Shown here: positions 23,162 through 38,563 of the stretch, piece after piece | Layout of the letters: the number at the start of each line of letters is the position of its first letter | How positions within the stretch are numbered: position 1 is the stretch's first letter | Source of the DNA: Candidatus Aenigmatarchaeota archaeon | Lineage (GTDB): Archaea; Aenigmatarchaeota; Aenigmatarchaeia; PWEA01 | Direction of reading: 5' to 3' | Assembly: GCA_046539325.1 (NCBI GenBank) | Contig: JBKHHD010000005.1 | Coordinates: forward strand, 2,165-66,164 | Length of the DNA: 64,000 bases | The notes under the pieces: model-generated | What the model was told of the DNA's origin: nothing | The model's input: only the letters and a program-made list of their open reading frames with translations | Database searches by the model: none | Program-made: the position numbers and the translations under genes

Positions 23162-23247
23162 GGAAACTCCTATGTACTAATTGATTGTCTTGATTTTAAA
23201 GTTTTAGTAAGCTTTCTCCTAGATCTTGGTGCGGTTTTCTCCTTTAA

Positions 23248-23276
23248 TTTTAAGTCTAAAGTTAAATCATTGCATG
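23248..23276 (-). promoter_or_regulatory. Conserved promoter/regulatory motif, copy 2 (minus-strand sense CATGCAATGATTTAACTTTAGACTTAAAA)
   Basis: Matches the 20855-20884 element at about 26 of 29 positions. Lies ~90 nt upstream of ATG 23161, with GGAG 7 nt before the ATG. Confidence 0.5.
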
Positions 23277-23320
23277 GTCAACTATTCGGAGAAACTATGC
23301 TCCCAAAAAACTCTCCTTTG

Positions 23321-24415
23321 CTAAGGATCATCCTGACAAACACATCTATCATGCATCCCTGACACACTTTTACAGTCCTTCCACTCGTACTCGCCTTTTG
23401 TTGCTCCTGTTTTTATACACTTATAATCTTGGTCACATTCGTCACCAGAATCGGAGCCATCGCCACATCCATCACCGCTCTCATCCACCGATTCACAGGC
23501 CATTACTTCGCCCTCACAACACATCTTCTGGTTACCATCCCACGTTGCACCTGAGTCCTTGCACTCATCACCAACTTCGCATTCGTCTTCGTCACACCCA
23601 TCCTCATCATCCTCGTCACCATTATCTCTTGAATAAGATGAGGGTTGAATAGTTTGTGAAGAGCTGTATTCGTCCTTGATCAATACCTTTGGTTTTTGCA
23701 TATTACCTTTTAGATCAACGGAGTAGGAAATATCATATACCTCGACATTGCATTTTACTTTTGTCATAGCATAGCCACTTTTTGTATCGCCCCATGAATT
23801 GATACAATTGTCTGCATTATCGTCTGGTTCCCATTTACGCCTGTCGGAAGAAACATCTTCTTGATAACAGGGATTTTCTGATTGTTGAACCACTTCCTTG
23901 TATCCCCTGCACTGACAGTACTGGTCTACATCATCCCAGGAACCTGTCATGCTCGAGCCACATTCGCCCCAGCCTGTAAAATCCCGGGCATTAACGTCTA
24001 CAGGGAAGTCAACCACCACAGGTTCTAAAGACTTCTCCACATGCAAATAGTTAACACTGAGGCTCATATACTGCTGAGGGTCCTCTCCGTCACCGGTCAT
24101 TTCTGTACCGTTTAGGCTGTCTAAATAGCTCTTAATTTTTTCCTCTATGTCGTCAATTCCAGGTTCACCATCTTCCTCCGAATAGGCTTCTCTTGTTCCA
24201 AGCCACACTGCATCATCGACGAGATCTCTTGAACTATCATACCTCAACTTCGCGTTTATGGTTTCTGATTGCTCCAGGCCTATTCGACCTGCACCAGTAG
24301 ATCCAGTAACCAGCACTGTAAATGCCACCGCCAGTCCTCCCCCTACGATTACTGCACTGACTACTCCAACCACTAATAAGCTTATAGCTCCACTTTCGGA
24401 TGACATTTTTGACAT
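23321..24415 (-). CDS. Class III signal peptide (pilin-like) protein with acidic, Cys-rich extracellular region
   Basis: ATG 24415 gives MSKMSSESG|AISLLVVGVVSAVIVGGGLAVAFTVLV. More than 25 Cys in CxC/CC clusters in the C-terminal half; many D/E. Confidence 0.55.
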   Translation of the reverse strand: MSKMSSESGAISLLVVGVVSAVIVGGGLAVAFTVLVTGSTGAGRIGLEQSETINAKLRYDSSRDLVDDAVWLGTREAYSEEDGEPGIDDIEEKIKSYLDSLNGTEMTGDGEDPQQYMSLSVNYLHVEKSLEPVVVDFPVDVNARDFTGWGECGSSMTGSWDDVDQYCQCRGYKEVVQQSENPCYQEDVSSDRRKWEPDDNADNCINSWGDTKSGYAMTKVKCNVEVYDISYSVDLKGNMQKPKVLIKDEYSSSQTIQPSSYSRDNGDEDDEDGCDEDECEVGDECKDSGATWDGNQKMCCEGEVMACESVDESGDGCGDGSDSGDECDQDYKCIKTGATKGEYEWKDCKSVSGMHDRCVCQDDP

Positions 24416-24468
24416 TTTATCAATCCTTGTTTTATTTACTGTAAATTCTATCTGACTTGTTAATTTAT

Positions 24469-24936
24469 TCAACCGCCTGCATTTTTATCGACAAGTATTG
24501 CCCTACCAAGCTTCTCATTTCCTAATAGGATGGTTCTTGAGGCCACTTCTTTTCTTGGATCATCCGGTCTTCCATGGATATATGTATTGCCTTGGTATTC
24601 AAAACGAATATAATAGTTGTCACCATTCTCCCCCTGAAATTTATTCTCCAAATCTTCTATTTCATCGTCTATGTCATCATTACGGCCGTTGTAGGTGTAG
24701 ATATAATCTATAAACTTCCTGCGGACTGATTCGCCGTTATCGTCCTCCGTTCTCAGGAAGGCACTAAGTACTATTTCATCTGTATGTCTATCGATCTCTT
24801 CAACTTCGATCTCGACATCCCTCTTTAGTTCAACAAAGTAGTTTATCGTGAAAAGTACGAGAAAAAACATAGCAGTGAATATAAGTGTGGCTATGAGTAT
24901 CGTGAACTGCCCTTTTTTGTTTTCTCTATTTATCAT
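24469..24936 (-). CDS. Class III signal peptide (pilin-like) protein
   Basis: MINRENKKG|QFTILIATLIFTAMFFLVLFTI. Confidence 0.55.
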   Translation of the reverse strand: MINRENKKGQFTILIATLIFTAMFFLVLFTINYFVELKRDVEIEVEEIDRHTDEIVLSAFLRTEDDNGESVRRKFIDYIYTYNGRNDDIDDEIEDLENKFQGENGDNYYIRFEYQGNTYIHGRPDDPRKEVASRTILLGNEKLGRAILVDKNAGG

Positions 24937-24946
24937 GTTTCATCTC

Positions 24947-25924
24947 CTAAACCTTTTTCCAGTAAGCTTCTGTGCTTGATCCAGAGTGGACATCACTTAC
25001 ACATTCATACATATCTGCACACTCATTTCCAACGTATTCGAGGTCGCACTTCTCTACTGTCCCGTTGTCGCAACATATCTCTAACTCTTCTCCCCGGGTA
25101 TCATATACCTCAGTGTGATAGAGATCAATATCCTCAAGAATGGTCCGAGAGTAGGTACAGGGTTCTTCACCTGCTTCTACAAAATAACTGGTTTCATCAC
25201 CCTTTTTTACTGCTGAAGTTTCAACATTTTCGTCGAATTCCATCTCTGGTACCTTCAGATTGTAGTCTTTGAATATATAGGTTGCCTTTCCCTTGTCGTC
25301 TATCCTGGCATCTATTTTTAACCTATCACCTGTTTTTCCTTTATCAGACTGGATAGTATGATTTTTATCGAACATAGTTTCCAATTTGAGAGGCTCGCCA
25401 TCTTCATACCAGGCTATCTTCCCTGTCCTGGTAGTAGAGGGTCCGAAATGTGGTGGATGTACCATGTAAAAAGTTGCGGTCCCGAGATTGTTTCCAGATC
25501 CCGTGTCTATAGTCACAGGCACATCCCACTCTGTGATATCTCCTACGACAATATCGCTGAGATCATTACCAAAGCTGTAGTCTTTGTTTTTTTCATGGTC
25601 TTCGACCTCTACGTAAGTCCAGACTGTTGGGTGGTGTGCACAGTCGAGAGCCTCGGTCCCGTCCTTTCTGTTGAGTTTAGCTTCGGAAAGAACTGCCATT
25701 TCGCCTGTCGAGAGGCAATCGGGCGAGGAAAGGATTTCGGCCATTACACTGTTGGCCTGAACCTTGCCCATACTGAAGGAGTACCCTTCAACAGCTATGT
25801 CTGTGGGTGCTATAATGAAATAGTAAAATACAAATACAAAACCTACCAATACTATAGTGTATAGAAGATACCAGATGAAGTCTCCTCCTGAAAGCCCTTT
25901 CACTCTTTCTTTAAAATTCAGCAT
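24947..25924 (-). CDS. Class III signal peptide (pilin-like) protein
   Basis: MLNFKERVKG|LSGGDFIWYLLYTIVLVGFVFVFYYFII. C-terminal Cys cluster. 14-nt overlap with the upstream gene. Confidence 0.5.
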   Translation of the reverse strand: MLNFKERVKGLSGGDFIWYLLYTIVLVGFVFVFYYFIIAPTDIAVEGYSFSMGKVQANSVMAEILSSPDCLSTGEMAVLSEAKLNRKDGTEALDCAHHPTVWTYVEVEDHEKNKDYSFGNDLSDIVVGDITEWDVPVTIDTGSGNNLGTATFYMVHPPHFGPSTTRTGKIAWYEDGEPLKLETMFDKNHTIQSDKGKTGDRLKIDARIDDKGKATYIFKDYNLKVPEMEFDENVETSAVKKGDETSYFVEAGEEPCTYSRTILEDIDLYHTEVYDTRGEELEICCDNGTVEKCDLEYVGNECADMYECVSDVHSGSSTEAYWKKV

Positions 25925-27353
25925 AATCCTCTACCACCTTATTGAGCTCACCGTCTTTTATCTCGATAACACTTCCACATTTTATGGTTCGTTCTGGCAT
26001 GTACCACGTATCTTCAAAGTCCCAGCCTCTGCTTTCAGAAAAGGTTTCTTTACTTGTCATTTCTGCCATGAAAAGGGGCTCTCCTGCGCCACTGTCCTGG
26101 TCCAGGGATATTCCTGCTGTGGCCATGTTCCAGAAAGAGCTTTCAACAGTAGCCTCACTTGAACCTATCAGTCCACCAAATTCTGCTGATCCTTCTGAAG
26201 GATTGACAGTTCCAGCTGAATAAGAGTTATTAATGGGATTTGATGATGAAGCCTGATGGCCTACTAATCCCCCTATTTTAAGCGTACGTAGATCCGCTTC
26301 GATATGAATGTTTGATGTGCTGTAAGAGTTAGAAATACCTCCATCGAGATGTGTTACACCTACAAGTCCCCCGACTCTATCTCCTTCGGCTTTAACCATA
26401 CCCGCCGAGAATGATTCTGAGATATCTCCATGTGAAAATGAACCTGCTAGGCCACCGACCTTTTCTTCCCCTTTGACATAGGCCTTGCTATAGGATTTGC
26501 TTATATCTGAGGTTTTCTGCGAACTAGATCCAACTAGTCCGCCTACAGAACTACTTCCTTGTACTGAACCGGTGGTGTGTGATTTTTTTATATCTGAGAA
26601 ATAAGCATTTCCGACTAATCCACCAACTGTATTTCCACCCTTGATTTTTACATCTTCAACACCGATGTTTCTTATTTCGCCCTCGGAAACGTACCCAAAC
26701 AAGCCAACATTATCTTCATTTGCTCTGTCAATATATAAGCCGCTTATTGTATGTCCTTGGCCGTCGAACTCCCCCATGAAGTAATTATGGTTTTTCTGTT
26801 CTCCTATCGGCTCCCAACCCTGTCCTCCGTTAGCGTCTCTTCCTGCGACCTCTTCATAACCGGGGGTATCCGAATCCAGATTATTCTTCAGGACGTAATT
26901 TTTATTTAAGTCATTTCTTATATCATCCAGATCATTCCAGTTTCTTATAGGGACGGAGTCTTCATGTTCACCTTCTATTTCTTCGTTGTTCTTTTCCCAA
27001 CGATGTTTTGGAAAGGACGGCCCCTTATGGAAGTTCCAGTAGGTTTTAGTGGTTAAATTATCTTCGTCTTCAACATCCAGTCTCGAACGTACAGCATCCT
27101 TTGTAAAGGTGATCTCACAGTCTGAAGTAAGCAAGGTTCTCTTTTCGATAGTAGTTTCTTCAGGAAAAGCCGAAGTGATCGTCATGTCGCTCGCGAGCTC
27201 TACGTTCTGATGCTGTATTTGGTTCTCTGCGCCCAATGAAATGAGCTCTGTTACCATATCCCCGCCGACAACCATCACCAGTAGCATTAGAATTACTATA
27301 ACAACGAGGCCGAGGGACTTTCCAATAGCGACTCCTTTCGTCCATGGGGACAT
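25911..27353 (-). CDS. Class III signal peptide surface protein with GLUG-type repeats
   Basis: MSPWTKG|VAIGKSLGLVVIVILMLLVMVVGG. Repeats VGGLVGNAYFSDI, VGGLVGSSSQ, VGGLAGSFSHGDI, VGGLVGVTHLDGGI, IGGLVGHQASS, FGGLIGSSEA, then SFWNMATAGIS. Paralog of the 20957-23161 product. Confidence 0.6.
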   Translation of the reverse strand: MSPWTKGVAIGKSLGLVVIVILMLLVMVVGGDMVTELISLGAENQIQHQNVELASDMTITSAFPEETTIEKRTLLTSDCEITFTKDAVRSRLDVEDEDNLTTKTYWNFHKGPSFPKHRWEKNNEEIEGEHEDSVPIRNWNDLDDIRNDLNKNYVLKNNLDSDTPGYEEVAGRDANGGQGWEPIGEQKNHNYFMGEFDGQGHTISGLYIDRANEDNVGLFGYVSEGEIRNIGVEDVKIKGGNTVGGLVGNAYFSDIKKSHTTGSVQGSSSVGGLVGSSSQKTSDISKSYSKAYVKGEEKVGGLAGSFSHGDISESFSAGMVKAEGDRVGGLVGVTHLDGGISNSYSTSNIHIEADLRTLKIGGLVGHQASSSNPINNSYSAGTVNPSEGSAEFGGLIGSSEATVESSFWNMATAGISLDQDSGAGEPLFMAEMTSKETFSESRGWDFEDTWYMPERTIKCGSVIEIKDGELNKVVEDYAEF

Positions 27354-27399
27354 AATAGTTTAATTATATCTTTTGTTTAAAATTGTTTATATTCCCCTT

Positions 27400-27798
27400 T
27401 CAGTTCTCCGGAACGCTTGGGTTAAGTGTATACTGGCATGCAATATATTCGTTACCTTTTTTGCACATCCCATAATAGTTACTTTCTTCATCTAGAACTC
27501 CTTTCCAGCCCTCGGGACAGAAACAGTCTGAGTCTTCTACAGCGTTATATTCGTTGTTAGGCGTTCTCACTGCATCCACGCACGTTACGTTCCATTCATC
27601 GTCCTCTTTTGTGCTATTAGGTCTACAGTTTCCATCTCTGATACAGGCAGCAGGGTTATCATTATGCTGTTCACAGCCTATGTCCATATCGGAGAAATTC
27701 ATCGCAAGAAGGACTATTACCACGAGTGCCAGACTTAGCTTTATCATTAGGAAAAGTATTTCTTCCATTGACTTTGAAGTTCCTTTATTAGAGATCAT
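27400..27798 (-). CDS. Class III signal peptide (pilin-like) Cys-rich protein
   Basis: MISNKG|TSKSMEEILFLMIKLSLALVVIVLLAMNF. 10 Cys in the C-terminal domain. Confidence 0.5.
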   Translation of the reverse strand: MISNKGTSKSMEEILFLMIKLSLALVVIVLLAMNFSDMDIGCEQHNDNPAACIRDGNCRPNSTKEDDEWNVTCVDAVRTPNNEYNAVEDSDCFCPEGWKGVLDEESNYYGMCKKGNEYIACQYTLNPSVPEN

Positions 27799-27799
27799 A

Positions 27800-27946
27800 T
27801 CAATACTCCAGCACTGACAATGCTGTTTCTATAGTAGGCTCGAGTGTATAGTAAATTATACCTACTATAAGGGCCAGTAAGATAAGAATTGCAATTATTT
27901 TCAGAGGATCCTTTGTTGTATTTGATATATCATAAAAAGTTGACAT
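27800..27946 (-). CDS. Possible 48 aa single-TM protein (not in ORF track)
   Basis: Hand translation gives MSTFYDISNTTKDPLKIIAILILLALIVGIIYYTLEPTIETALSVLEY. Tightly packed, with 1-2 nt gaps to both neighbours in the same orientation. Confidence 0.3.
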   Translation of the reverse strand: MSTFYDISNTTKDPLKIIAILILLALIVGIIYYTLEPTIETALSVLEY

Positions 27947-27947
27947 T

Positions 27948-28094
27948 TTATATTCCCCTAATTCTATGTATCAGTAGATCTGATATATTTCCCAAAGAGC
28001 CTTCTGCAGTTAGAATTAAAGCCGTGGCAATCGCGAGAATTATAAGTGCCCCTATCAGAAACAATATCGTACTGCTGAATCCCTTTCTTTTCAT
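27948..28094 (-). CDS. Mini-pilin: 48 aa class III signal peptide protein
   Basis: ATG 28094 gives MKRKG|FSSTILFLIGALIILAIATALILTAEGSLGNISDLLIHRIRGI. The longer ORF call to 28145 would overlap the next mini-pilin. Confidence 0.5.
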   Translation of the reverse strand: MKRKGFSSTILFLIGALIILAIATALILTAEGSLGNISDLLIHRIRGI

Positions 28095-28102
28095 CCTTTC
28101 AC

Positions 28103-28276
28103 CTAGATCAGATTGCCTAAAAACTGCATCATGTTTCCTATCCATCCTTCACCGGAGCCGATTATATCAGTCCCAATTAAAAAGAGCATTCCAACGAGTA
28201 TTACAACTGCTATTATTGCAACGAGCACTTCTAAAGACATCTTCCCCTTTTTAAGAAATCTAGCTTTGTTCAGCAT
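28103..28276 (-). CDS. Mini-pilin: 57 aa class III signal peptide protein (not in ORF track)
   Basis: Hand translation gives MLNKARFLKKG|KMSLEVLVAIIAVVILVGMLFLIGTDIIGSGEGWIGNMMQFLGNLI with a TAG stop at 28103-28105. Confidence 0.5.
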   Translation of the reverse strand: MLNKARFLKKGKMSLEVLVAIIAVVILVGMLFLIGTDIIGSGEGWIGNMMQFLGNLI

Positions 28277-28319: not shown

Positions 28320-29435
28320 TCAACTGCCTTCTGATTGGTATTCCTCGTCTACCTCCCAGTAATATTCTTTCTCTGCTAAACAAAGGCACCATGCTTCACC
28401 AGCTTCTTCTTCGCAGAACTCTTCTTCGGAGTCAATCTTCTCATAGCCCCTTGGAGCGTCCTTTTGTTCGAAACAACCCGAGGACCAGATTATTTCATCT
28501 TTGGCGCTGCACTGGTCTGCACAGGCGGCGTCAAGTTCTGTGCCTCCCTCTCTTGAATCCCTTTCCTTTGAACTGCAGACTACAGGAGCATAGAGTTCAA
28601 AGGGATGGGTACCTTCCCAGTATCTCCGTAGTAACATGAGTTGGAATCTCCTCTTTGAGTTGGGGATTTTTATATCAACGCCTTTACCTATAGCGAAGTC
28701 AGAAACCGGATCGCCATCTATCTGAATATCATCTCCTGAGTCCGAGGCCATCCACCTCACATCGCCCATTTCACTAAGAGTGCTACCCTCCTTGTTCCAG
28801 AGAACTGTCCCTTCTTCAAAGTTCCATAGAGCACACCTACCGCTTTCGAAAGTAGAAAAAATTACGCAGCCTTCGTGACTGTCTAGATTACTTAGACTGT
28901 TTACCTCATTTTGACCTACTTCATCCAGTGCGTCTTTACATGCTCCTTTTGTTTCGCCACCAGAGCTGTGTGTATATATCATATCTCCTTCGCTGTCAAT
29001 AAGTTCATACTCCAGGTGTTTTCCAGGATGTTGATCTGTTAAGTGGAACTCACCGAGATTGTCGTCGTTTCCATCCCTTACATAGGAGTGTATGTATTTT
29101 CCTTGTCTATCGGATACACCACAGTAGCAGCCTGCAGATTCTACGTCTATGGCGAAATCTGCTATCCTTTCCTGGGCGATGGTATCCGTCCCTACAGGAT
29201 TGCCCCACTTTCCTCGGGATACCCCACTTACAAGACCTTCCCAGACCCTGTCCTTCAAGAAGCTGTGTCCTTCGATGCTTGCCTGTATATCACAGTATGT
29301 CGGGCATACAACGTCCTTACCAATAATCTGATTTCCTACACGGCCTATTATTTTTCCTCCCAGAGAACCTGTTATAATTATTATGATGATAACGAAAACT
29401 ATGATCAGCATTGCACCAGACATGCCTTTTTTCAT
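28320..29435 (-). CDS. Class III signal peptide protein, member 1 of a tandem Cys-rich paralog triplet
   Basis: ATG 29435 gives MKKG|MSGAMLIIVFVIIIIIITGSLGG. Shares GCYCGVSDRQGKYIH, EFHLTDQHPGKHLEY, YAPVVCSS and C-terminal CLCLAEKEYYWEVDEEY with the next two genes. Confidence 0.6.
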   Translation of the reverse strand: MKKGMSGAMLIIVFVIIIIIITGSLGGKIIGRVGNQIIGKDVVCPTYCDIQASIEGHSFLKDRVWEGLVSGVSRGKWGNPVGTDTIAQERIADFAIDVESAGCYCGVSDRQGKYIHSYVRDGNDDNLGEFHLTDQHPGKHLEYELIDSEGDMIYTHSSGGETKGACKDALDEVGQNEVNSLSNLDSHEGCVIFSTFESGRCALWNFEEGTVLWNKEGSTLSEMGDVRWMASDSGDDIQIDGDPVSDFAIGKGVDIKIPNSKRRFQLMLLRRYWEGTHPFELYAPVVCSSKERDSREGGTELDAACADQCSAKDEIIWSSGCFEQKDAPRGYEKIDSEEEFCEEEAGEAWCLCLAEKEYYWEVDEEYQSEGS

Positions 29436-29540
29436 TCTATTTTCCGAACTTTCGTAATTTCTCAAAGTTATCACCTAAATTAAGTAGCTGGGAACCGTCT
29501 TGAATCCCATTGACCTTAATGCATACCTTTAAGTTTTCTA

Positions 29541-30896
29541 TTATACAGGTGTACATGAACATTTCACACTACTACAATCCTCACCTAAATTCGCAGTTAC
29601 CTCTTCATTACAGTCCTTGTCATATGTATAACAACTATTTTCTGCGCTATTCCAACCGCTACCAACAGCGTTCGCGGGGTCCGTTCCTCCGTATGCACCT
29701 CCTGAAACTTCGCAGTGCTCACCACCGCAGGTAACACCTTCTAGCTCCTCCTCACACCATTCTTCGCAGGAGTCTATTTGTTCTTTACCTGTGGAATAAC
29801 AATCTCCTTCACTTTCCCCGCCATTCTCCACTTCTGGTTCGTATTCTTCATCCACCTCCCAATAATATCTTTTTTCGGCTTTGCAGCTACAGTATGGATC
29901 TTCCTCGCTTGCCTTCTCTTGTCTATTTGTTCGAGCCTGTGTTTCAGGACATAAATCCTCTGATTTCCTGTACTCTTCTGGAAGTAGATCGTAATTTTCT
30001 ACCGGGGTTTCGCTGCAGGTCGAACCCCAGAAGATTTCCTCCTCGTCGTTGCAGTAGTCCCTACATGCTTTATCGACCATGGAGTCCGCTTCCTCTTCGT
30101 TTCTTCCATCTGACTTGCAGACCACTGGTGCCGCAAACCGAAATTCAGTACTTTCCTCGGACACGTTTTGAAGCAGCATTCTCTGTGAGCTGTGGCCTCC
30201 TGAAAATGAAACGCTGTCGCCTATTTCAATATCTTCGACGGGACCATCAAAGTCATCACCATATCTCTCGTAGCCTTGTAATGTATCTTCTATACTTCCT
30301 TCACTGTTGTTGAGAACCGATCCTTCTCCGGCCTTCCATACTGCACAATTGTAATTGCCGTCGTTGTCTTTTTGAACAGAAACTATTAAGCACGCTTCCG
30401 CGTCCTGTATCCCACTGAAACCACCTAGATCTTCTTTGTCCTCTTCCTCTATAATTTCCTCGCATGCGTCAAACCCTCCAGTGTGGTCAAAGCCCGTTGC
30501 CTTGTATTTAAGATGCATCGCAGGATTTTGTTTTGTAAGGTGGAATTCATATATATTCTCAGGACCCCCGGCTGTATGAACATGCATGTACTTCCCATTC
30601 CTCTGATCAACGCCACAGTAACACCCGGCTGCCGCAGGCTTTGCCATACCCGCTCTAGCCTTGTCTATTATTATATCGGACCAGCTTACGCTTCCTCCTA
30701 GCCATGAAGGCCACCATGCCCACCTGCTGTAATCCTCCGCTTCGTGGTGTATGTTGCAATAAATGTCACATCCGTATGTATTCATAAAAATTGGTTCGAC
30801 CATCATCCAGAAAATATCAAGTATTACAGTTACGCCTAAAAGTGCCAGGATTATAACTACTAAAACCATCGCACCGATACCTTTTTTATTTGACAT
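29541..30896 (-). CDS. Class III signal peptide protein, member 2 of the paralog triplet (extra Cys-rich C-terminal extension)
   Basis: MSNKKG|IGAMVLVVIILALLGVTVILD. Motifs GCYCGVDQRNGKYMHVH, EFHLTKQNPAMHLKY, FAAPVVCKS, CSCKAEKRYYWEVDEEYEPE. Confidence 0.6.
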   Translation of the reverse strand: MSNKKGIGAMVLVVIILALLGVTVILDIFWMMVEPIFMNTYGCDIYCNIHHEAEDYSRWAWWPSWLGGSVSWSDIIIDKARAGMAKPAAAGCYCGVDQRNGKYMHVHTAGGPENIYEFHLTKQNPAMHLKYKATGFDHTGGFDACEEIIEEEDKEDLGGFSGIQDAEACLIVSVQKDNDGNYNCAVWKAGEGSVLNNSEGSIEDTLQGYERYGDDFDGPVEDIEIGDSVSFSGGHSSQRMLLQNVSEESTEFRFAAPVVCKSDGRNEEEADSMVDKACRDYCNDEEEIFWGSTCSETPVENYDLLPEEYRKSEDLCPETQARTNRQEKASEEDPYCSCKAEKRYYWEVDEEYEPEVENGGESEGDCYSTGKEQIDSCEEWCEEELEGVTCGGEHCEVSGGAYGGTDPANAVGSGWNSAENSCYTYDKDCNEEVTANLGEDCSSVKCSCTPV

Positions 30897-30901
30897 CTCA
30901 A

Positions 30902-31108
30902 TCAGAATGCTATACCGAATTTATCCGTGACGAAATAAACTATTACAAATACTATCAATACCAGTATTAATATCGCTATGGCGGATAAGATCGAACTTTC
31001 GCTTGCTTCCTGCAAAAATACACACCAAATAACGTTTTCGAACGGAGTTAAATATATTTTGTCCTTGCCTTTGCCTCGTCTACTCGTCTTTAGGTTCGTA
31101 CTCTTCAT
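30902..31108 (-). CDS. Possible small C-terminally anchored membrane protein (uncertain start)
   Basis: The ORF in this gap ends ...SSILSAIAILILVLIVFVIVYFVTDKFGIAF. The upstream part of the 140 aa call overlaps the next gene out of frame, so only the 3' portion is proposed. Confidence 0.2.
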   Translation of the reverse strand: MKSTNLKTSRRGKGKDKIYLTPFENVIWCVFLQEASESSILSAIAILILVLIVFVIVYFVTDKFGIAF

Positions 31109-32171
31109 CCACCTGCCAGTAGTATTCTTTTTCGACAACGCACTGGCAGTAGGGGCTTTCGAATTCATCGGGACAGAAATCCTCTTCCTTTGTATATTTT
31201 TCCGGGAGTTCGTCGTAGTCTCTGAGGGCTGTATCGCTACATTTGGACTGCCAGAAACCCATATCTTCCTCGCTGCAGTATTCAGCACAGGCCTTGTCGA
31301 ACTCTGTCTCAGGATCCTGTTCAACGGATTCGGATTTGCAGACTACAGGAGCATATAAATCAAAGGGGCGTTCTCCTTCCCAGTATTGACGGAGCAGTAT
31401 CTTCTGGAAGGCAGGTTTATCACCTTTTACCTCTACTTGTTGGCCTATTTCCAGTTGAAGTGGGTTATTGTCAGTGCCGGACGTCAAACGTCTACTGTTG
31501 GGCTTTAAATGGATCATTGAACTAAGAGATTCCCCTTCTTTGTTCCACAGAGCTGAGCCTTCTTGTGCGCCATATATAGTGCAGCTCTCACTGCCATCCT
31601 TCATGGAAACTATTACACAGCCTTCGTATTCTCCTAGGTCTTCAAGTCCTGTGAACTCGTCACTGTCTTCCATTTCATCTTTACAGTTCTCCAGGCCATC
31701 CGTTTGCCTGTTTCCGTCTGCGTGGTCGAACTCGGCTGCGGCTTTTTTATTTGCATAGTACTGGAGATGCAGCTTGGGATTTTGATCAGTTATATGGAAC
31801 TCCTTCACCGTTCCGTCGTCTGCGTTTCCGTGAATATGTATATATTTACCACTCCTCTCGGAAACACCGCAGTAACATCCCATGGCTTTGGGATCTATAT
31901 TTTGCTTTAGTTTGTCCAAGGCGACTTCAAAAGTCGTTTTTCGGCCCCACCACTGGTCGTCACCTATACCTATTATATTCCAGCCACTGAGTCCTTCTAC
32001 ATCCGTCTGTATACTGCAGAATTTATTACATGCCCTGTCCATGGTGTCAAATCCGGCGAAGGCCGCAAAGATAGGCTCCATAACCCCTGCATAAAGAACT
32101 CCGCTGAGTAAAAACATCACTATGGCTATTACGAAAAGCAACATAGGCAATCCCCCCTTTTTGTTAATCAT
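31080..32171 (-). CDS. Class III signal peptide protein, member 3 of the paralog triplet
   Basis: MINKKGG|LPMLLFVIAIVMFLLSGVLYAG. Motifs GCYCGVSERSGKYIHIH, EFHITDQNPKLHLQY, YAPVVCKS, CQCVVEKEYYWQVDEEYEPKDE. Confidence 0.6.
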   Translation of the reverse strand: MINKKGGLPMLLFVIAIVMFLLSGVLYAGVMEPIFAAFAGFDTMDRACNKFCSIQTDVEGLSGWNIIGIGDDQWWGRKTTFEVALDKLKQNIDPKAMGCYCGVSERSGKYIHIHGNADDGTVKEFHITDQNPKLHLQYYANKKAAAEFDHADGNRQTDGLENCKDEMEDSDEFTGLEDLGEYEGCVIVSMKDGSESCTIYGAQEGSALWNKEGESLSSMIHLKPNSRRLTSGTDNNPLQLEIGQQVEVKGDKPAFQKILLRQYWEGERPFDLYAPVVCKSESVEQDPETEFDKACAEYCSEEDMGFWQSKCSDTALRDYDELPEKYTKEEDFCPDEFESPYCQCVVEKEYYWQVDEEYEPKDE

Positions 32172-32213: not shown

Positions 32214-34313
32214 TCACAGTCCTTCACCCAGAAGTCCAGCTATCTGTGTACCGAAGACCTCCCAGACAACTACAAGTGAAAAGGAGTAAACGATTACCCC
32301 GATGAGTATCATAAATCCTGCAGCCTTCCTCTTAGCTACCTTGTCGCCCGGTCCGTTCTCCACACCTGCAGTAAGCATCGCCAGTAGGTAGGAGGTCTGT
32401 ATAACGTAAATTCCTACAACGATCTGAAGTATGTATAAGGGCATCATTTCACCCGCGGCTCCCCATCCGCCGACAAGCATACCGTCCATGCCTATTCCCG
32501 CCATGCCTCCTATCCCTACATCACCTTCGGTTGCCTGGCCCAATCCCTCCATCGCTTCTCCTATGCCCCGGAATATAGACATCATTATCGCGGCCATCGC
32601 GACCGAGACACCTGCTACGAACGGGCCAAGGAAGGAACCTAGAAACTGCATGGAAGTTGTCTCCGAAGAAAGCATATTTTTGAGGTCTCCCTCTATTTCG
32701 TCCAACTGTTCGAGATACTTGGATATGGAGATGGCCGATCTTGAAGCTATTCTCGATCCTTTTTCCGTGGCATCGACGACTATCTTCATGACTGAGGTCA
32801 CAAGGTCCGATGGATATTGCCATACAGCACCGAAGTTCTTATCAAAGAATGCGTTTCTAAGGTCCATTCCCCCTTTCCTCATATTTTTAACAACCTTTCT
32901 GAACATGTTAGATATCTCCAGGTCTTCGTTTCTCTGGACTGTGTCTTCTGCGGCTCTCTCTATGGGCTTCCCGAGGTCCATTCTGTTGCCGAGAGAAAAC
33001 AACGCCTTCGAAAACTCGTCCTCTATGTTCTTTATACTCTCCCGTAGCTCGATCTTTGCCCTCGTATCCAGAAGAAAGTAGCTGGATGGTCCGATCGCGA
33101 TACCTCCGGTGATAACTAGCGAGGTCACTATCTGTCTGAAGAGGTCCTCACCTGCATGGAATTTCACCAAGTAGATCCCTAGAAGTATTACAGGAAGGGA
33201 TAGAATAAGGGATATGGGCCATATTTTGATGGTTTTATCTCCCAGTTTCATCATTCCCGAAGGGATATGGTCTGGATGTTTTGATATATCAGGCGTCGAA
33301 AATCCCATTGGCCTGTACTCCAAAGTCCTTTTACCTGTCAGGTATATTATCAGCGGGAGAATTATGTTGTACCCGATAAAGAGGAAAGCTGGCCTTACAG
33401 TATCCTCTAGCATGAGTATTATTATGGGAAACATAACCAGTACCATGATAGGAAGCATTATACCGAGCATATGTATGATCATAATAGGCAGTTCCAGCTT
33501 GTTGGAGTATTCCTTCATCATCTCCCTCGAACCGGACATCATCGTGTTTATACCTTCGTCAAGCATAGCCTTCCTCTTCTCCTTCGACTGTTCCATGGAG
33601 TTCTGGATAACCTGCATGGCCTCAACGAAGGGTTTGTTGTCCTGCCATTTCTCCAGGTAGTCGGACAACGCTTCTTTCATGGATATATATTTTCCTGTCT
33701 CGACATCCCAGAGCATCTTCTTGAAGTCGAGGGAAAGGGGTTCTCCGAGGTGCTCTGCAGTGAACTTTATAGCTCCTTCAAGGTTTGGCGATGTTCGCAT
33801 ATATATGACCATATATATTATGGCCAGCATTATCTGATCAGCAGCTTTAACTCGGAAAAGACGTGCTTGGGAGTTCGGATATTCAGCCAGCAGGTAGATT
33901 GCAACGGCCCCGAGCATGAATATCAGGAGACCGAAAACTATAGAAGCTATTCCGAAGGCCATCAGGATTATGCCTGCCAAGAAGATCATAAGCCCAGAAA
34001 GAACAGCCAAGGAATAGGCTCCCGGGGGCGTTATCTGCATGTATGCCATATCTATTGATCGCTGCAGCTCCTCCTTTTTGTCTTCAGATGGTTCAATCAC
34101 AACTATGTCTTCGGCTATGTTGCAGAGCTTTTCGTACAGCGACTTCTCTCTGTGTTTTTCCTCTTCTTTGATGAAGGTGTTGTACTCCCTGGATGTAAAG
34201 GTCCTATTTTCCTCACCGGGTAGCTTCAAATCCTTTTTTCCTTCCTCAACTATGTTGTCTATCTCTTTCTCCCATTCATCCTCGAAATTGTCCTCAGGCA
34301 TTCTTGAATTCAC
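32214..34313 (-). CDS. Polytopic membrane platform protein of a type IV pilus/archaellum-like system (FlaJ/TadC/GspF family)
   Basis: 699 aa with two blocks of multiple TM helices separated by cytoplasmic domains, the size and architecture of FlaJ/TadBC fusions. Immediately downstream of, and overlapping, the FlaI-like ATPase gene. Confidence 0.6.
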   Translation of the reverse strand: MNSRMPEDNFEDEWEKEIDNIVEEGKKDLKLPGEENRTFTSREYNTFIKEEEKHREKSLYEKLCNIAEDIVVIEPSEDKKEELQRSIDMAYMQITPPGAYSLAVLSGLMIFLAGIILMAFGIASIVFGLLIFMLGAVAIYLLAEYPNSQARLFRVKAADQIMLAIIYMVIYMRTSPNLEGAIKFTAEHLGEPLSLDFKKMLWDVETGKYISMKEALSDYLEKWQDNKPFVEAMQVIQNSMEQSKEKRKAMLDEGINTMMSGSREMMKEYSNKLELPIMIIHMLGIMLPIMVLVMFPIIILMLEDTVRPAFLFIGYNIILPLIIYLTGKRTLEYRPMGFSTPDISKHPDHIPSGMMKLGDKTIKIWPISLILSLPVILLGIYLVKFHAGEDLFRQIVTSLVITGGIAIGPSSYFLLDTRAKIELRESIKNIEDEFSKALFSLGNRMDLGKPIERAAEDTVQRNEDLEISNMFRKVVKNMRKGGMDLRNAFFDKNFGAVWQYPSDLVTSVMKIVVDATEKGSRIASRSAISISKYLEQLDEIEGDLKNMLSSETTSMQFLGSFLGPFVAGVSVAMAAIMMSIFRGIGEAMEGLGQATEGDVGIGGMAGIGMDGMLVGGWGAAGEMMPLYILQIVVGIYVIQTSYLLAMLTAGVENGPGDKVAKRKAAGFMILIGVIVYSFSLVVVWEVFGTQIAGLLGEGL

Positions 34314-36561
34314 CGGACTTTATCTGCTCCTTGAGCCATTCCTCCCATCTTTCAAAGGTCTCATCGGGATCAACGTATCCCACTTCGTCACTCACCTCGT
34401 CCATTATTAGTCGGAACTTACTGTTGCTCTTTACGACGAAGGGAGCTTCCATCAGCTCTTCGTTACCGGTTTCAAGCGCGTAGTCGCTTATGGCCTTCTT
34501 TACCTTTCCTCTAAGTTCTATGTTTTCCCAGACACGGTCCCATCTACCGGCCCATTCCTTCACCTGTGATGATATCTTGTTCAGGACCTGTGATTCGCCG
34601 TTTAGAAGCGTATCAGTGGGCTTGAGTCTATCTTCCTCGGCCGAGTACTCCATGAGAGGTACGAATCCGTCTTCGTCCCTTGGATCCTCGGACCAGTGCT
34701 TCCTTACTTCGGTGACACCCGTCACTCTTCTTATTTCTTGAAGGCCAGAGGCGCTTTTGATTCTATTGCATATAACAATTAGATCAGTCGCCTTGAAGGA
34801 AGTCTTTGGAACGCCTAGATCGTGTACTACACGGTCGAAGAGACCGTAGGCGGACTCGCCATGTATTGTTCCTGCCACGGTCTTAGCCATGGCCCCTATA
34901 CGCATCGCCTCGTAAAGCGCCTGAGCCTCTGTACTCCTTACTTCACCTATTATAAGTGCTGAGTCACCAAGACGTAGCGCAGTTCTTATTGATTCTGATG
35001 CAGGGAGTTCCGTCTCGACCTGCGTAATTACTGAGCGTGACTTCAGGCGCTGTGCGTCGTAGCCCAGCTTCTTCAGAGTTTTTACAGGAAGCTCTAGTGT
35101 ATCCTCGGATGTTATGACCCTCCAGTCTCTCTTCATCTCGAGCATGGACGCACCGAGCAGGGAAGTCTTTCCAGAGCCTCTTCCACCACCGATAAGGAAC
35201 GTCCTTCCGCCATCTATCACAAAGCTCATGAGTCCTGCGAATAGCGGGCTTATGTAACCTATATCTGGCTGTAAGTAGAGGGGGTAGGTCCACGGATCTT
35301 CCCTGTGTCTTCTCAGAGCTAAGCCAAGGCCTTCAGGAGCCAGTGTCGGAGCTATGACGGTTACCCTCGCATTTCCACCGGGTACTTCTACTGATGTATC
35401 TAGAACTGGGTTTGCCTCATCAAGAGGCCTACCACTTGAAAGTCTTAGCTTCGTCGCCCAGCTTTCAGCATCGTCCTGTGTAGGAATTATGTTGGTTCTG
35501 CATTCGCCATAGTCTTCGTGATTTATGAAGATAGGTTTACTCCCCAGAGGTGAGTTTATGTATATATCCTGGACCTTTTCGTCTTCAAGTATTGCCTCAA
35601 GAATACCTAGTCCTCCTGTATATCTACTTAGTATTGAATTCAGCCTTTCAATCTGCTCAGGTTCCAGGTCTGTGCCTTCCCTTTCGGCTATATCCTTTAT
35701 GAGATCCTTCCCTATGGAGGAGAAAACCTCCCTCGATCTCTCTGACTCGGCAAACTCTGTAGTCTCTGGTCTGTGCTCGCTCAGATACCTCTGCGCAGCG
35801 TCAAGTATACTGTATTCACCTTCTTCTAGCTTGAACTCCGGTGGCGAGAAGTGATACAGCGGTCTTGTTTCGTCAGGAAGATTATATACTTCAATATCAG
35901 AGCTGCCAACTTCGTAGTGATCTATCATCCCGCCTTCTTCTGGTGTCTGTTTCATATACTTCGTTCGCATGAAGTTGGGCCTGACTGAAGGGTAGAAGAG
36001 TTCACGGTATGCATCTCTCTGTCCTGGGTGGTATCCAGAAAGCTCACCCTTGACTTCCTTTATCATCCTGGTCTGTTCCAACCTTTCTTTTATCGGTAGA
36101 AGAACTTCGTTCAGGTAAGTTTCCTTGCACTCTTTCTGGGGACCTCCTTCCTTGGTCTGGATCCTAACATGCCTTATTTTCCTTTTAAGGTGGATATAAG
36201 CTCCTACCGGGTCCTTCCTAAGCTCGTCCATTGCAAGTCCTTGAAGCTCCGAGTACTTTTCCTGGAAGTACTGATTACAGTCCGGAACTTCCAATCTTTC
36301 AAGCTTCCTGAGACCGAGTTCTTTCATCACGTCTTTCAGAACTTCGGCTATCTCTACCAGAAGCTTCGTCTGTTCGTAGGGATACTCGTACTCGCGGCTG
36401 TTTTTGAAAAGTACTGTCTTTACTCCCTTGACCTCCATTATCTTGTCTATGGTATTTGCCATACATTCTTCGTAGTCAGCGACACTACTTCCGTAGATAC
36501 ATCCGGAGCAGTTTACCTCTATTCTCTTCTCATCTTCATCGTATTCGTAGTCACAGGGCAT
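34294..36561 (-). CDS. Type II/IV secretion system ATPase (FlaI/PilB/VirB11 superfamily) with long N-terminal extension
   Basis: Walker A GGGRGSGKTS, Asp box/Walker B DSALIIGEVR, His box TIHGES, in the C-terminal ~350 aa. Total 755 aa. First gene of the minus-strand locus. Confidence 0.8.
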   Translation of the reverse strand: MPCDYEYDEDEKRIEVNCSGCIYGSSVADYEECMANTIDKIMEVKGVKTVLFKNSREYEYPYEQTKLLVEIAEVLKDVMKELGLRKLERLEVPDCNQYFQEKYSELQGLAMDELRKDPVGAYIHLKRKIRHVRIQTKEGGPQKECKETYLNEVLLPIKERLEQTRMIKEVKGELSGYHPGQRDAYRELFYPSVRPNFMRTKYMKQTPEEGGMIDHYEVGSSDIEVYNLPDETRPLYHFSPPEFKLEEGEYSILDAAQRYLSEHRPETTEFAESERSREVFSSIGKDLIKDIAEREGTDLEPEQIERLNSILSRYTGGLGILEAILEDEKVQDIYINSPLGSKPIFINHEDYGECRTNIIPTQDDAESWATKLRLSSGRPLDEANPVLDTSVEVPGGNARVTVIAPTLAPEGLGLALRRHREDPWTYPLYLQPDIGYISPLFAGLMSFVIDGGRTFLIGGGRGSGKTSLLGASMLEMKRDWRVITSEDTLELPVKTLKKLGYDAQRLKSRSVITQVETELPASESIRTALRLGDSALIIGEVRSTEAQALYEAMRIGAMAKTVAGTIHGESAYGLFDRVVHDLGVPKTSFKATDLIVICNRIKSASGLQEIRRVTGVTEVRKHWSEDPRDEDGFVPLMEYSAEEDRLKPTDTLLNGESQVLNKISSQVKEWAGRWDRVWENIELRGKVKKAISDYALETGNEELMEAPFVVKSNSKFRLIMDEVSDEVGYVDPDETFERWEEWLKEQIKSGEFKNA

Positions 36562-36667: not shown

Positions 36668-37072
36668 ATGGCTTTCGGTAACTCCGGCAAATCAAGTTTG
36701 GAGGATATAGTAAGGAAACTTCTAGACAGAGTCAAGGAGAACTCAAGACGTCTAAGGGACGTCGAAGAGGAAAACAGGTCCATGGCTTCCAGTATTAGGT
36801 CTCTGGAAGAGAGGATTATAGACCTTGAAGACAGGCAAGGTGAAGATGTAAAGGAGTTAAGGGAGAAGATCGATGACCTTGGAACAAGGGTAATGAAGAT
36901 AGAGAACGTTATATCAAAGATCAAGGACAGGCTTGAGGAGGCGCCCAAAAAGGATGAGTTCGAAGAAGTAAAGAACTTTGTGAATCTTCTTTCACCAATG
37001 GAAAGTCAGTTTGTAACAGAAAGCGAGGTAAAAAGGCTTATTAAACAGGAGTTACAAAAAGAAGGTAGATAA
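36668..37072 (+). CDS. Coiled-coil protein, unknown function
   Basis: 134 aa, E/R/K-rich heptad pattern. Divergent from the pilus-locus ATPase gene. Confidence 0.5.
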   Translation: MAFGNSGKSSLEDIVRKLLDRVKENSRRLRDVEEENRSMASSIRSLEERIIDLEDRQGEDVKELREKIDDLGTRVMKIENVISKIKDRLEEAPKKDEFEEVKNFVNLLSPMESQFVTESEVKRLIKQELQKEGR

Positions 37073-37073
37073 G

Positions 37074-37970
37074 ATGGTCTTCGGCTTTGGTAAAAGTGAT
37101 GAAGAAGATACTCAAGACAGATCTTCCTCGCGGTCTCCCTCTAGATCACCTACAAACCAGGTCAGGGAGCTTGCTTCACAGGGTTATTCCGAGAGAGAGA
37201 TAATTGAGAAGTTGAAGGATTTAGGATATTCGAGCCAAGAAATAAACAAGAGTATAAATAAGGTTTTGAAAAGTAAGGTTTCTAACTCGGATGGTCAGGC
37301 TGCGGCATCACGTCGCCCTCCTCAAACAACCCAATCAAGATCTTCCCAGGAGCAGGGTCCTGTTTCTTCAAGTAACAACTTTATTGCTCCTGAACCTTCG
37401 CAGCCAAATGATTCATTTGAGGGTGGCTCAGCTGACGAAAGCGATCCATTTGCTAAGTTCCAAGGTAATAACAAAAAAAGAGATGACGTTTGGGAGATGA
37501 CAGAGGAAGAGGAGATAGAGCTTGAAATTCTCATAGAGGAAATTATAGATGAAAAATGGGTCACTGTGGAGTCGGATCTCGAGAAGTTCCGAGAGGAAAG
37601 AGAGGGTATTATAAGGAGGATTGAATCCCTCGAGGAGAAGGTTGAAAAGCTCGAGGAAAAACATGAGGAAGAGAGGGAAAGGCTTGAGGACAAGACTGAT
37701 AAGACCTTTGACCATGTCAAGAGTGTTGAATCCAGGGTAGGTTCTGTCGAAAAGGCCTTCAAGGACTTCTTACCGCAGCTTACCGAGAACGTTCGCTCGC
37801 TTTCGAGCGTTGTTAAAGATCTAGAAGAAGATACTGCAAGAAGCAACAGGAGCAGTTCGTTGCGCAATAATAGGATGCCTGATTCGCCTGAAAGTTATAT
37901 AGAAGGCTCGAAACAGGAAGAAAATTCTAAAGAAGAAGAGGACGAAAGCCCTTCAGCCATTCCCCAGTAA
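37074..37970 (+). CDS. Disordered/coiled-coil acidic protein, unknown function
   Basis: 298 aa. Ser/Pro/Gln-rich N-terminal half and E/K-rich coiled-coil C-terminal half. Starts 2 nt after the previous stop. Confidence 0.5.
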   Translation: MVFGFGKSDEEDTQDRSSSRSPSRSPTNQVRELASQGYSEREIIEKLKDLGYSSQEINKSINKVLKSKVSNSDGQAAASRRPPQTTQSRSSQEQGPVSSSNNFIAPEPSQPNDSFEGGSADESDPFAKFQGNNKKRDDVWEMTEEEEIELEILIEEIIDEKWVTVESDLEKFREEREGIIRRIESLEEKVEKLEEKHEEERERLEDKTDKTFDHVKSVESRVGSVEKAFKDFLPQLTENVRSLSSVVKDLEEDTARSNRSSSLRNNRMPDSPESYIEGSKQEENSKEEEDESPSAIPQ

Positions 37971-38011: not shown

Positions 38012-38563
38012 CTATCCTTCATCGACCATCCACCAGACCACCATTACCATGAATCCTAGGAAGAACAATAGTGGATAGTTCTTTGCTATATAAGGCGGTA
38101 GTTCTATTCCCAGTGCCTGGTGTGCCCCGGAACCTATGAAGACTAATATCGCCAGTACGGCGATCACCAGTCCTGTCAAGCTCTCGTTCCAGCCAAAAAA
38201 GCCTGAACCGTGCTCATCTTTTTCCCTATCAAAGCCTGCTATCTCGACAAATACTATCAGGAGAAGTACGCCTCCTAACAGTGCCACAAATCCGGCGGAG
38301 AGTGCGGCGAGCTGTCCGATGTAAGGGGAAAGCACCGGGGCTATAATGAAGGCCAGTACTATTCCTATTATTGCCCTTGCACCATCGTTTTCGGGCATAC
38401 CATCCTCACCGAGCTGGCTGAGGACTCCGTAGACTATGGCAAAGGTCAGCAGCCAAGGTAATACAAGGGAGAAAAAGTCTATCCCTACGAACTCCGATAT
38501 CTCCTCGACTGGGCCGGTGGTCTGTGCCTTCATTGCCGTTTCGGTTATCTTTTCAGCTAACAT
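38012..38563 (-). CDS. 4-TM membrane protein, paralog family member A (PWLL motif)
   Basis: LVLPWLLTFAIVYGVLSQLG motif in TM1. Four hydrophobic helices. C-terminal WWMVDEG. Confidence 0.5.
   Translation of the reverse strand: MLAEKITETAMKAQTTGPVEEISEFVGIDFFSLVLPWLLTFAIVYGVLSQLGEDGMPENDGARAIIGIVLAFIIAPVLSPYIGQLAALSAGFVALLGGVLLLIVFVEIAGFDREKDEHGSGFFGWNESLTGLVIAVLAILVFIGSGAHQALGIELPPYIAKNYPLLFFLGFMVMVVWWMVDEG

Follow-up and report, generated by a model that had tools for sequence, protein, structure and literature searches.

Three adjacent genes in the 64,000-nucleotide stretch of DNA analysed here (the window) encode homologous cysteine-rich proteins, P1, P2 and P3, which we lean towards interpreting as pilin-like subunits of a type-IV-filament machine that is specific to a lineage of halophilic Aenigmatarchaeota (DPANN). 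Since these Cys-rich proteins always adjoin pilus motor genes and nearly always number three, they are probably parts of a pilus, and perhaps the parts that grip the host cell. The genes and their neighbours are listed below in the order of transcription:

34294..36561 (-): type-IV-filament secretion ATPase, 755 aa, with a Cys cluster at its N-terminus (Pfam T2SSE, E=2e-13)
32214..34313 (-): platform membrane protein, 699 aa (Pfam T2SSF, E=8e-7, a match that clears the gathering score)
31080..32171 (-): P3, 363 aa, non-B type, the first family gene past the platform gene
30902..31015 (-): micro-ORF read from the sequence, 37 aa, single TM, TTG start, MQEASESSILSAIAILILVLIVFVIVYFVTDKFGIAF
29541..30896 (-): P2, 451 aa, B type, with the Trp-rich loop WAWWPSWLGGSVSWSDI
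29541..29840 (-): add-on module at the C-terminus of P2, outside the family core, 99 aa past YYWEVDEEY with 10 Cys
28320..29435 (-): P1, 371 aa counted from the MKKG start (ATG), non-B type, the protein chosen for structural modelling
27800..28276 (-): three tiny TM proteins of 57, 48 and 48 aa, conserved, just downstream of P1
18507..27798 (-): remainder of the co-directional cluster, with more proteins that carry an N-terminal K/R-G and a hydrophobic helix

Homology, N-termini and gene neighbourhood

A first, sequence-only reading had reported three adjacent genes with common blocks, and its coordinates proved exact. When the whole window is translated in six frames, the blocks GCYCGV, EFH.T.Q.P, APVVC and YYW.VDEEY each occur exactly three times, once per gene, and a family profile run against the window retrieved the ORFs of P1, P2 and P3 only (E=5e-129 for P2 and E=1e-121 for P3, which has 14 Cys). 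BLASTP aligned all pairs (P1-P2, 34% identity, E=8e-46; P1-P3, 37%, E=1e-70; P2-P3, 36%, E=5e-71), and the three-way alignment contains 87 invariant columns, 14 Cys among them. Given the BLASTP E-values, the alignment and the motif census, the blocks reflect real homology, and low-complexity coincidence is rejected as their source. P1 is identical to NCBI ACLFQ8_01310, and its longest ORF begins at a GTG at 29474. Meanwhile, the NCBI gene call for P3 (P0001, 354 aa) is without the leader.

Each protein had also been credited with a KKG-type class III start, and this was confirmed. P1, P2 and P3 display a short leader ending in KKG (MKKG, MSNKKG and MINKKG) followed by about 20 hydrophobic residues that begin MSGAMLIIVF, IGAMVLVV and GLPMLLFV, respectively, the arrangement of archaeal type IV pilin-like leaders ([KR]-G/A plus about 20 hydrophobic residues). 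Across the family, 28 of the 35 members have a basic leader of 3-24 aa ending in [KR]G and then a hydrophobic 19-aa window, the best such window reaching a mean hydropathy of 2.4-3.4; most of the others appear to be gene calls cut short. All cluster proteins downstream of the family have an N-terminus of this kind. Curated pilin, archaellin and class-III-signal profiles of Pfam and NCBIfam gave no match to the three proteins at E<=1, and no hit to a prepilin peptidase (PibD/FlaK/EppA; Peptidase_A24-type) turned up among roughly 60 ORFs of the window, which covers 64 kb of a 222-kb contig.

The gene neighbourhood points to a filament machine. The ATPase matches the NCBIfam models for FlaI (E=2e-34) and TadA (E=3e-31), both under the curated cut-offs. 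The platform gene has a 20-nt overlap with the ATPase gene and stops 42 nt short of P3; wherever a locus extends far enough, a counterpart of about 690-700 aa lies directly upstream of the family genes. The family sits directly past a T2SSE ATPase and a T2SSF platform gene in the window and in L001, L003, L012, L013, L016, L018, L020 and L021. Hence the co-encoded ATPase and platform protein (TadC/FlaJ/T2SSF) that accompany pilin-like proteins are present both here and in related loci.

Smaller genes are conserved as well. The micro-ORF sits between P3 and P2, and in L001, L003 and L009 counterparts of 37 aa, ending F[AT][ED][TK]FGI.., directly precede the B-type gene. The tiny TM proteins past P1, the middle one of which starts with the class-III-like MKRKG followed by F, have counterparts in L001, L003 and L013 and gave no Pfam match. 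The cluster ends at an OGG gene, as it does in L001 and L003. By Pfam, adhesin-type domains (GLUG, M26_N-like and Flg_new_2) occur in other proteins of the cluster, and those of 18507..27798 also include Cys-rich ones. The Cys-rich proteins at 27400..27798, 24947..25924 and 23321..24472 show no detectable kinship with either the family or the P2 extension.

Fold, cysteines and the His/Glu cluster

The AlphaFold model of P1 (pLDDT 81.3, pTM 0.75) comprises a 50-residue N-terminal helix (6-56), a low-confidence linker (56-87) and a beta-rich head at pLDDT >90. The head is a previously undescribed fold, for which Pfam, NCBIfam and PDB yielded no relative. No known domain was found in P1, P2 or P3 at E<=1 in Pfam or NCBIfam, the sequence-profile search of the PDB returned noise only, and no solved pilin was retrieved as a structural match to the head. 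Term searches of the literature found no description of the family, and a second large protein search, with a profile of the 35 sequences, returned 5 hits, fewer than the first.

The same 14 Cys are present in 27 of 27 long members, most of which have exactly 14, and they appear to form seven disulfides in the long form, including two predicted pairings of a helical CxxxC with a CxC of the cysteine-stabilised alpha/beta type. In the P1 model, C305xxxC309 lies in helix 300-311 and C350xC352 in strand 347-354, so that this pair displays the CxxxC in a helix and the CxC in a strand that define the type. For the other pair, C44/C48 lie on the N-terminal helix (6-56), and C103/C105 in an extended coil where the head begins, just ahead of strand 108. 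Losses are consistent with such pairing: the short members lack the last six Cys together and retain exactly 8, and P0029 lacks both C166 and C201.

The YYWEVDEEY block had been proposed as a sorting or interaction tag, an idea that did not hold up. In the model it forms two strands (347-354 and 356-362) at pLDDT >90, and W360 is invariant in 35/35 members, including the short ones, which keep the Y.W.V strand and lack the whole preceding Cys-rich insert. P1 and P3 end 5 acidic or polar residues past it, and in P2 the 99-aa domain comes next. Because no hydrophobic segment or basic tail lies past it, the block is not of sortase or archaeosortase type, and both an archaeosortase signal (PGF-CTERM/PEF-CTERM) and a sortase signal (LPXTG) were rejected.

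Four His are conserved in the family (H116, H131, H140 and H156). H116 and H131 are invariant in the 35 members, and E129, H140 and H156 are jointly absent from P0031 and P0035. In the hairpin register predicted from the model strands, H116 would face H131, with E129 on the same face. This conserved His/Glu cluster is probably a metal or ligand site. The pattern could also be taken to indicate that the head acts as a metalloenzyme or a redox protein, either secreted or anchored, such as a hydrolase of the host envelope, with genes merely co-transcribed with the machine and copies that are iso-enzymes. The invariant pair, its predicted geometry, and the loss of the other three residues as a unit, as in enzyme/pseudo-enzyme pairs, speak for this explanation, to which we give very little credence.

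The putative binding site, together with the neighbourhood, bears on another possibility: the class-III-type N-terminus may serve only as an anchor beside the machine, with P1-P3 acting as a stator or scaffold like archaellum FlaF/FlaG, or as surface metal or ligand binders, much as sugar-binding proteins are displayed by the Sulfolobus Bas bindosome, rather than as filament subunits. The fixed place directly past the platform gene is like that of accessory motor components, the His/Glu cluster may suggest ligand binding, and the hydrophobic Trp-/Gly-rich loops past the N-terminal helix in the B and G types could meet the membrane interface. The ATPase matches the bindosome ATPase BasE, if weakly (E=2e-12, 46 bits, far under the cut-off of 1000). 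A 2026 census (bioRxiv 10.64898/2026.04.22.720090) also describes type-IV-filament machineries of archaea that are 'functionalised' and display substrate-binding proteins. However, P1-P3 resemble neither FlaF/FlaG nor solute-binding proteins nor any further family, the cluster contains no ABC transporter, and the variable outward modules of the B type fit exposure far from the cell better. We regard this explanation as improbable.

Three differentiated paralogs and a proposed mechanism

Three copies of the family are present in the window and in L006/L015, L001/L016, L003/L018, L009/L019, L008/L017, L011/L020 and L012 (the last counted from a profile scan), and two in L013. Thus, the set of three occurs in 8 of 9 distinct loci, very distant ones included. 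Phylogenetic clades B, G and M have bootstrap values of 88%, 100% and 98%, respectively, and clade B holds one member per genome, showing that the paralogs are differentiated. The split of B from the other types is older than the divergence of these genomes (bootstrap 88%). A comparison of dN/dS between the paralogs, which had been suggested, was uninformative since synonymous sites are saturated: dS was not computable in 5 of 6 pairs and reached 1.9 in the sixth. The domain is lineage-specific, as had been suggested, but the retention of three copies in most loci, the old B split and the saturated dS argue against the local, recent expansion that tandem duplication had implied.

The B type stands out by its C-terminus. 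The additional Cys-rich module of about 100 aa noted on the middle copy corresponds to the 99-aa extension of P2, which has no Pfam match at E<=1 and no relative in the window. In B-type orthologues the C-termini vary, with Flg_new_2 in P0011 (E=7e-9), beta-rich tails in P0020, P0022 and P0023, and no extension in P0005 and P0008; an InlB B-repeat surface domain is among these modules. The adhesin or tip role first suggested is still plausible, as orthologues of the middle copy bear such surface modules.

These observations also allow the three proteins to be considered major subunits of a heteropolymeric filament, like archaella built of FlaB1/B2/B3, with the tiny 48-57-aa proteins as accessories. 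Genes for archaellins and major pilins typically stand in tandem as two or three paralogs, a habit that P1-P3 match. Moreover, they are the first pilin-like genes past the motor genes and the best conserved among the cluster's pilin-like proteins across loci, and the sole other candidates for a major pilin would be unusually small, at about 43 aa when mature. On the other hand, major pilin heads usually vary fast, whereas this head is unusually large and strictly conserved, with a putative binding site. Interchangeable end modules on one paralog are more typical of tip or minor subunits, and single copies without the His/Glu unit or one disulfide suggest specialised rather than interchangeable roles. 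We consider major subunits unlikely.

Returning to the pilin-like subunits that we favour, we postulate that the N-terminal hydrophobic helix of each protein inserts it into the membrane and that a prepilin peptidase would cut off the short basic leader past K/R-G. The ATPase and the platform protein would then pull the helix out and build a filament or a short pseudopilus. The three paralogs most likely work jointly as one complex, since three differentiated copies are nearly always kept and the B type carries interchangeable, outward C-terminal modules. Different pilin-like subunits that are co-encoded and kept together are expected of a minor-pilin tip or initiation complex, and three differentiated copies occur in 8/9 loci. 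Our preferred guess is that the three subunits form a cap or tip complex, which may prime assembly and show an adhesive module to a surface or a host cell. More speculatively, and with low confidence, one could imagine a halophilic DPANN lineage whose pilus is capped by the three paralogs, with a new fold, seven disulfides and a metal site, in which one subunit swaps its C-terminal modules and thereby changes the adhesion target; three copies would then have been selected for, because separate duplications in different lineages would have reached that number.

The source lineage is a salt-loving, ultra-small archaeon. A role in host contact is suspected for DPANN pili, whose pilins usually go unannotated (PMC9563170). 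The family provides a testable candidate subunit set for one DPANN machine in Haloaenigmatarchaeaceae, adds a protein family to those without detectable relatives in Pfam, NCBIfam and PDB, and reveals an unusual regularity: three differentiated paralogs are kept beside motor genes, a pattern indicative of a defined multi-subunit complex. If the proteins do form a tip complex, archaeal type IV filaments too would use dedicated cap complexes, and there would be a handle on the partner choice of an uncultured symbiont. A three-subunit cap would give the bacterial minor-pilin tip complex its first counterpart in archaea, and it would be a candidate for the device by which a DPANN symbiont recognises its host. 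Should the tip assignment be false, the annotation gain remains: a new pilin-like family, a corrected P3 start, the micro-ORF and the three tiny TM proteins.

Comparison with known systems

CS-alpha-beta defensins and scorpion toxins share the cysteine motif, but matches to them fall far below significance and give no evidence of common descent. Those are peptides of about 40 aa, whereas here the motif, with its predicted connectivity, would staple parts of a large domain.

The archaeal class III pilins and minor pilins offer another comparison (M. maripaludis EpdB/C/D/E, Sulfolobus UpsA/B and AapA/B, Haloferax PilA1-6). Like P1-P3, they have a K/R-G leader and a hydrophobic helix of about 20 aa, and their genes cluster with those for a T2SSF platform and a FlaI/TadA-type ATPase, several different pilin-like genes to a cluster. 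P1-P3 differ from them in the head of about 300 aa, the 14 invariant Cys, the His/Glu cluster and the fixed three-paralog set, and they gave no match to a pilin profile or to the structure of a solved pilin; a peptidase gene was not seen nearby. The Sulfolobus Bas bindosome and other 'functionalised' machineries likewise combine large globular proteins bearing class-III-type N-termini with a dedicated ATPase and platform pair and surface display. Unlike the bindosome, P1-P3 lack a solute-binding-protein domain, their genes are not linked to an ABC transporter, and the similarity to BasE is weak.

The bacterial cap complexes, GspI-GspJ-GspK of T2SS and FimU-PilV-PilW-PilX with PilY1 of T4P, are no homologues: similarity to GspI/J/K or PilV/W/X is absent in sequence and fold, and P1-P3 are mutual paralogs whereas GspI/J/K are only distantly related. 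PilY1 binds calcium. As here, distinct pilin-like proteins are encoded side by side; in the bacterial systems they act as one complex at the filament tip, in which one protein is enlarged or is coupled to an adhesin. A top layer of three subunits, as in these cap complexes, fits the geometry of a type IV filament.

Three paralogous genes and their neighbourhood

Judged by sequence, the pilin-like proteins P1, P2 and P3 are clear paralogs, with pairwise identities of 34-37% over nearly the full length (BLASTP, E from 8e-46 to 5e-71) and 87 invariant columns in a three-way alignment, 14 of which are cysteines. The four blocks that a sequence-only reading had described as common to these genes occurred three times each when the 64-kb window was translated in all six frames, with one copy in every gene, and a family profile search of the window found no fourth member, which bears out that observation. 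The additional Cys-rich extension described for the middle copy was also confirmed: 99 residues, including 10 further cysteines, follow the YYWEVDEEY motif in P2, and 5 residues follow it in P1 and P3. P1 is 100% identical to NCBI protein ACLFQ8_01310; P1, P2 and P3 correspond to ACLFQ8_01310, _01315 and _01320 (matches P0002, P0003 and P0001 of our database search), encoded on a 222,693-bp contig of a MAG labelled 'Candidatus Aenigmatarchaeota archaeon'.

The three genes belong to a co-directional cluster that spans ~24 kb of the window, from roughly 18.5 to 42.8 kb.

Features of the cluster (window coordinates, strand)
18507..19364, minus: protein with Flg_new_2 domain and knottin-like tail
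20957..23161, minus: protein with GLUG, ALK/LTK glycine-rich and M26_N-like domains
23321..24472, minus: 18-Cys protein
24947..25924, minus: 8-Cys protein
25911..27353, minus: GLUG protein
27400..27798, minus: 8-Cys protein, weak EGF-like match
27800..28276, minus: three conserved tiny TM proteins (57, 48 and 48 aa), downstream of P1
28320..29435, minus: P1, ORF of 371 aa
29541..30896, minus: P2, ORF of 451 aa
30902..31015, minus: micro-ORF, TTG start, 37 aa, single TM
31080..32171, minus: P3, ORF of 363 aa
directly upstream of P3, co-directional with the triplet: T2SSF platform protein, 699 aa
34294..36561, minus: secretion ATPase, 755 aa; Pfam T2SSE, best NCBIfam matches FlaI and TadA, under their cut-offs

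The ATPase and platform genes overlap by 20 nt, and 42 nt separate the end of the platform gene from P3. Every related locus of sufficient length displayed the same gene order, running from the ATPase and platform through the family genes and the tiny proteins to further pilin-like proteins; this includes the loci of the most distant, short family members. The ATPase opens with a Cys cluster (C3, C18, C21, C33); among the pilus ATPases of archaea, some have variable N-terminal Cys-rich domains (Makarova et al. 2016, PMC4858521).

Further upstream, five paralogous genes in tandem (38012..40731, minus) encode multi-TM proteins of 162-184 aa, which share the motif LPWLLTFAIVYGVLSQ and had no significant Pfam match. 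Loci L001 and L003 carry a run of ~160-190-aa genes upstream of the ATPase that is similar in size and position, so the five proteins may be additional membrane components of this machine. The upstream cluster end encodes two very acidic, Lys/Glu-rich proteins of 425 and 242 aa (40785..42794, minus), also without a Pfam match. A divergent coiled-coil gene pair occupies 36668..37970 (plus); weak RecX_HTH1 matches suggest a counterpart of its 37074..37970 protein at the same position in L003. Elsewhere in the window, adjoining genes for AMP phosphorylase-like, form III RuBisCO and ribose-1,5-bisphosphate isomerase-like (IF-2B family) proteins (8033..11911, minus) represent the AMP salvage pathway of archaea, which is widespread among DPANN genomes.

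The micro-ORF between P3 and P2 has counterparts in L001, L003 and L009, likewise of 37 aa and sharing its C-terminal motif, F-x-[DE]-x-FGI. In all four loci it lies immediately upstream of the B-type gene (the subtype of P2), and it is absent from the NCBI-derived protein matches. The tiny TM proteins had no Pfam match. The middle one begins with MKRKG followed by FSST, which would give a mature form of only ~43 aa; it might be a pilin of extremely small size and a candidate for the major subunit. That P1-P3 are themselves the major subunits of a heteropolymeric filament we consider unlikely. Beyond the tiny proteins, at least six larger proteins all have N-termini with K/R-G (or a near variant) and then a hydrophobic helix, several with adhesin-type domains (GLUG, Peptidase_M26_N-like, Flg_new_2) or Cys-rich modules.

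Distribution of the family

Neither P1, P2 nor P3 had a Pfam or NCBIfam match at E<=1, and comparing a profile with all PDB sequences returned only noise. A word-seeded search of 5.8 billion proteins matched 16 clusters, and HMMER, run exhaustively against 1.84 billion representatives, gave 27 matches. With one exception, the matching GTDB species genomes were soda-lake sediment MAGs (T1Sed10/B1Sed10) labelled Aenigmatarchaeota; all JGI metagenome matches came from two soda-lake sediment datasets. The exception, L006, is a 4.9-kb contig (PWGO01000007.1) in a MAG labelled Syntrophomonadaceae bacterium. It holds the closest relatives of the window's triplet, and its label is most likely a binning error. 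PWEA01, among the genomes carrying the family, has given its name to a clade of halophilic Aenigmatarchaeota for which the name Haloaenigmatarchaeaceae has recently been used (PMC9765267; PMC13195033); the acidity of the proteins (pI 4.2-4.5) is consistent with such a clade.

The family is restricted to a narrow uncultured lineage. A literature search that covered two censuses of archaeal type IV filament systems, from 2016 and 2026, turned up no prior account of it, although term searches cannot prove absence. Its members are pilin-like proteins whose head has a new fold, and they are maintained as a set of three; their function is only deduced.

N-terminus, predicted fold and conserved residues

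A KKG-type class III N-terminus had been proposed for each copy, and the pattern holds across the family: 28 of the 35 aligned members display a basic leader of 3-24 aa ending in [KR]G, then a strongly hydrophobic stretch of ~20 aa. A CxxxC motif follows ~38-43 residues past the KG. Most of the exceptions look like truncated gene calls. The NCBI version of P3 (P0001, 354 aa) begins at MLLFV and drops the leader MINKKGGLP (32145..32171, minus), which the orthologue P0004 retains; the true start is more likely the upstream ATG at 32171.

AlphaFold reached a pLDDT of 67 for P1 with a 16-sequence alignment, and of 81.3 (pTM 0.75, five concordant models) with 35 sequences. In the model, residues 6-56 form an N-terminal helix, residues 56-87 a linker of poor definition and residues 100-365 an alpha/beta head, mostly above pLDDT 90. 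YYWEVDEEY makes up the final beta-hairpin (strands 347-354 and 356-362). W360 does not vary in the family, and short members retain a Y.W.V strand without the Cys-rich insert before it. The motif thus closes the core as one of its strands and is not a detachable tag, which speaks against the sorting or interaction role once suggested.

All 27 long members retain the same 14 cysteines, and most have exactly 14. Short members lost C305, C309, C321, C341, C350 and C352 jointly, leaving exactly 8, and P0029 lost C166 together with C201. This pattern of joint loss and retention points to disulfides. With C305xxxC309 predicted to be helical and C350xC352 to lie in a strand, these residues have the layout of the classical cysteine-stabilised alpha/beta signature. 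The layout recurs in C44xxxC48, carried by the N-terminal helix, and C103xC105, where the head begins. Pairing of the latter two would staple the helix to the head, as pilin architecture requires.

H116 and H131 are invariant in 35/35 members, and the predicted hairpin register would make them face each other, with E129 on the same side. E129, H140 and H156 were lost jointly in P0031 and P0035. The cluster looks like a putative metal- or ligand-binding site given up by some copies. An enzyme simply co-transcribed with pilus genes is, in our view, very improbable.

Subtypes and possible role of the set of three

Scanning every retrieved locus with the family profile gave three family genes in the window, L006/L015, L001/L016, L003/L018, L009/L019, L008/L017, L011/L020 and L012, and two in L013. 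In a bootstrapped neighbour-joining tree, the B type (88% support) has one member per genome and is marked by the Trp-rich loop W(A)WWPGWLGGSVSW. C-terminal extensions are frequent in this type: Cys-rich in P2, an InlB B-repeat in P0011 and P0012 (Flg_new_2, E=7e-9), and other beta-rich tails in P0020, P0022 and P0023. The non-B copies of the L001, L003 and L009 genomes belong to the G type (100%), with a ~45-aa Gly/Ala-rich hydrophobic insert, and the M type (98%); the window's P1 and P3 form their own clade with the L006 orthologues (83%).

The loop between the CxxxC helix and the CxC (noted at L001 8662-9975, in P0019, P0021, P0022, P0028 and P0030, and at P2 residues ~58-75) is variable and hydrophobic, being Trp-rich (WAWWPSWLGGSVSW) in B types and carrying the Gly/Ala-rich insert in G types. 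Such loops look like membrane-interface or membrane-inserting segments.

On the neighbour-joining tree, the single B clade and the differing non-B clades indicate that the B/non-B split is old. The same tree suggests that two lineages gained or homogenised their third gene independently, both ending with three. Diversification by tandem duplication, in the sense of a local and recent expansion, is not supported. A dN/dS comparison between paralogs was uninformative because synonymous sites are saturated.

Three features argue for placing P1-P3 among the pilins: their N-terminal signature, their gene neighbourhood and a long helix predicted at the N-terminus. Against full membership stand the lack of a profile or fold match and the lack of a peptidase gene, no prepilin peptidase being found among about 60 ORFs of the window. 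The small and the pilin-like proteins of the cluster likewise matched no known pilin family. A membrane-anchored scaffold, or bindosome-like displayed binding proteins, appears doubtful. We lean modestly towards P1-P3 being pilin-like subunits with class III signals, served by the adjacent ATPase and platform, the three acting together. In the most attractive version of this reading, the three subunits would form a cap or tip complex in which the B subunit presents its variable module. Bacterial GspIJK and PilVWX-PilY1, although without homology to P1-P3, provide the model for this proposal.
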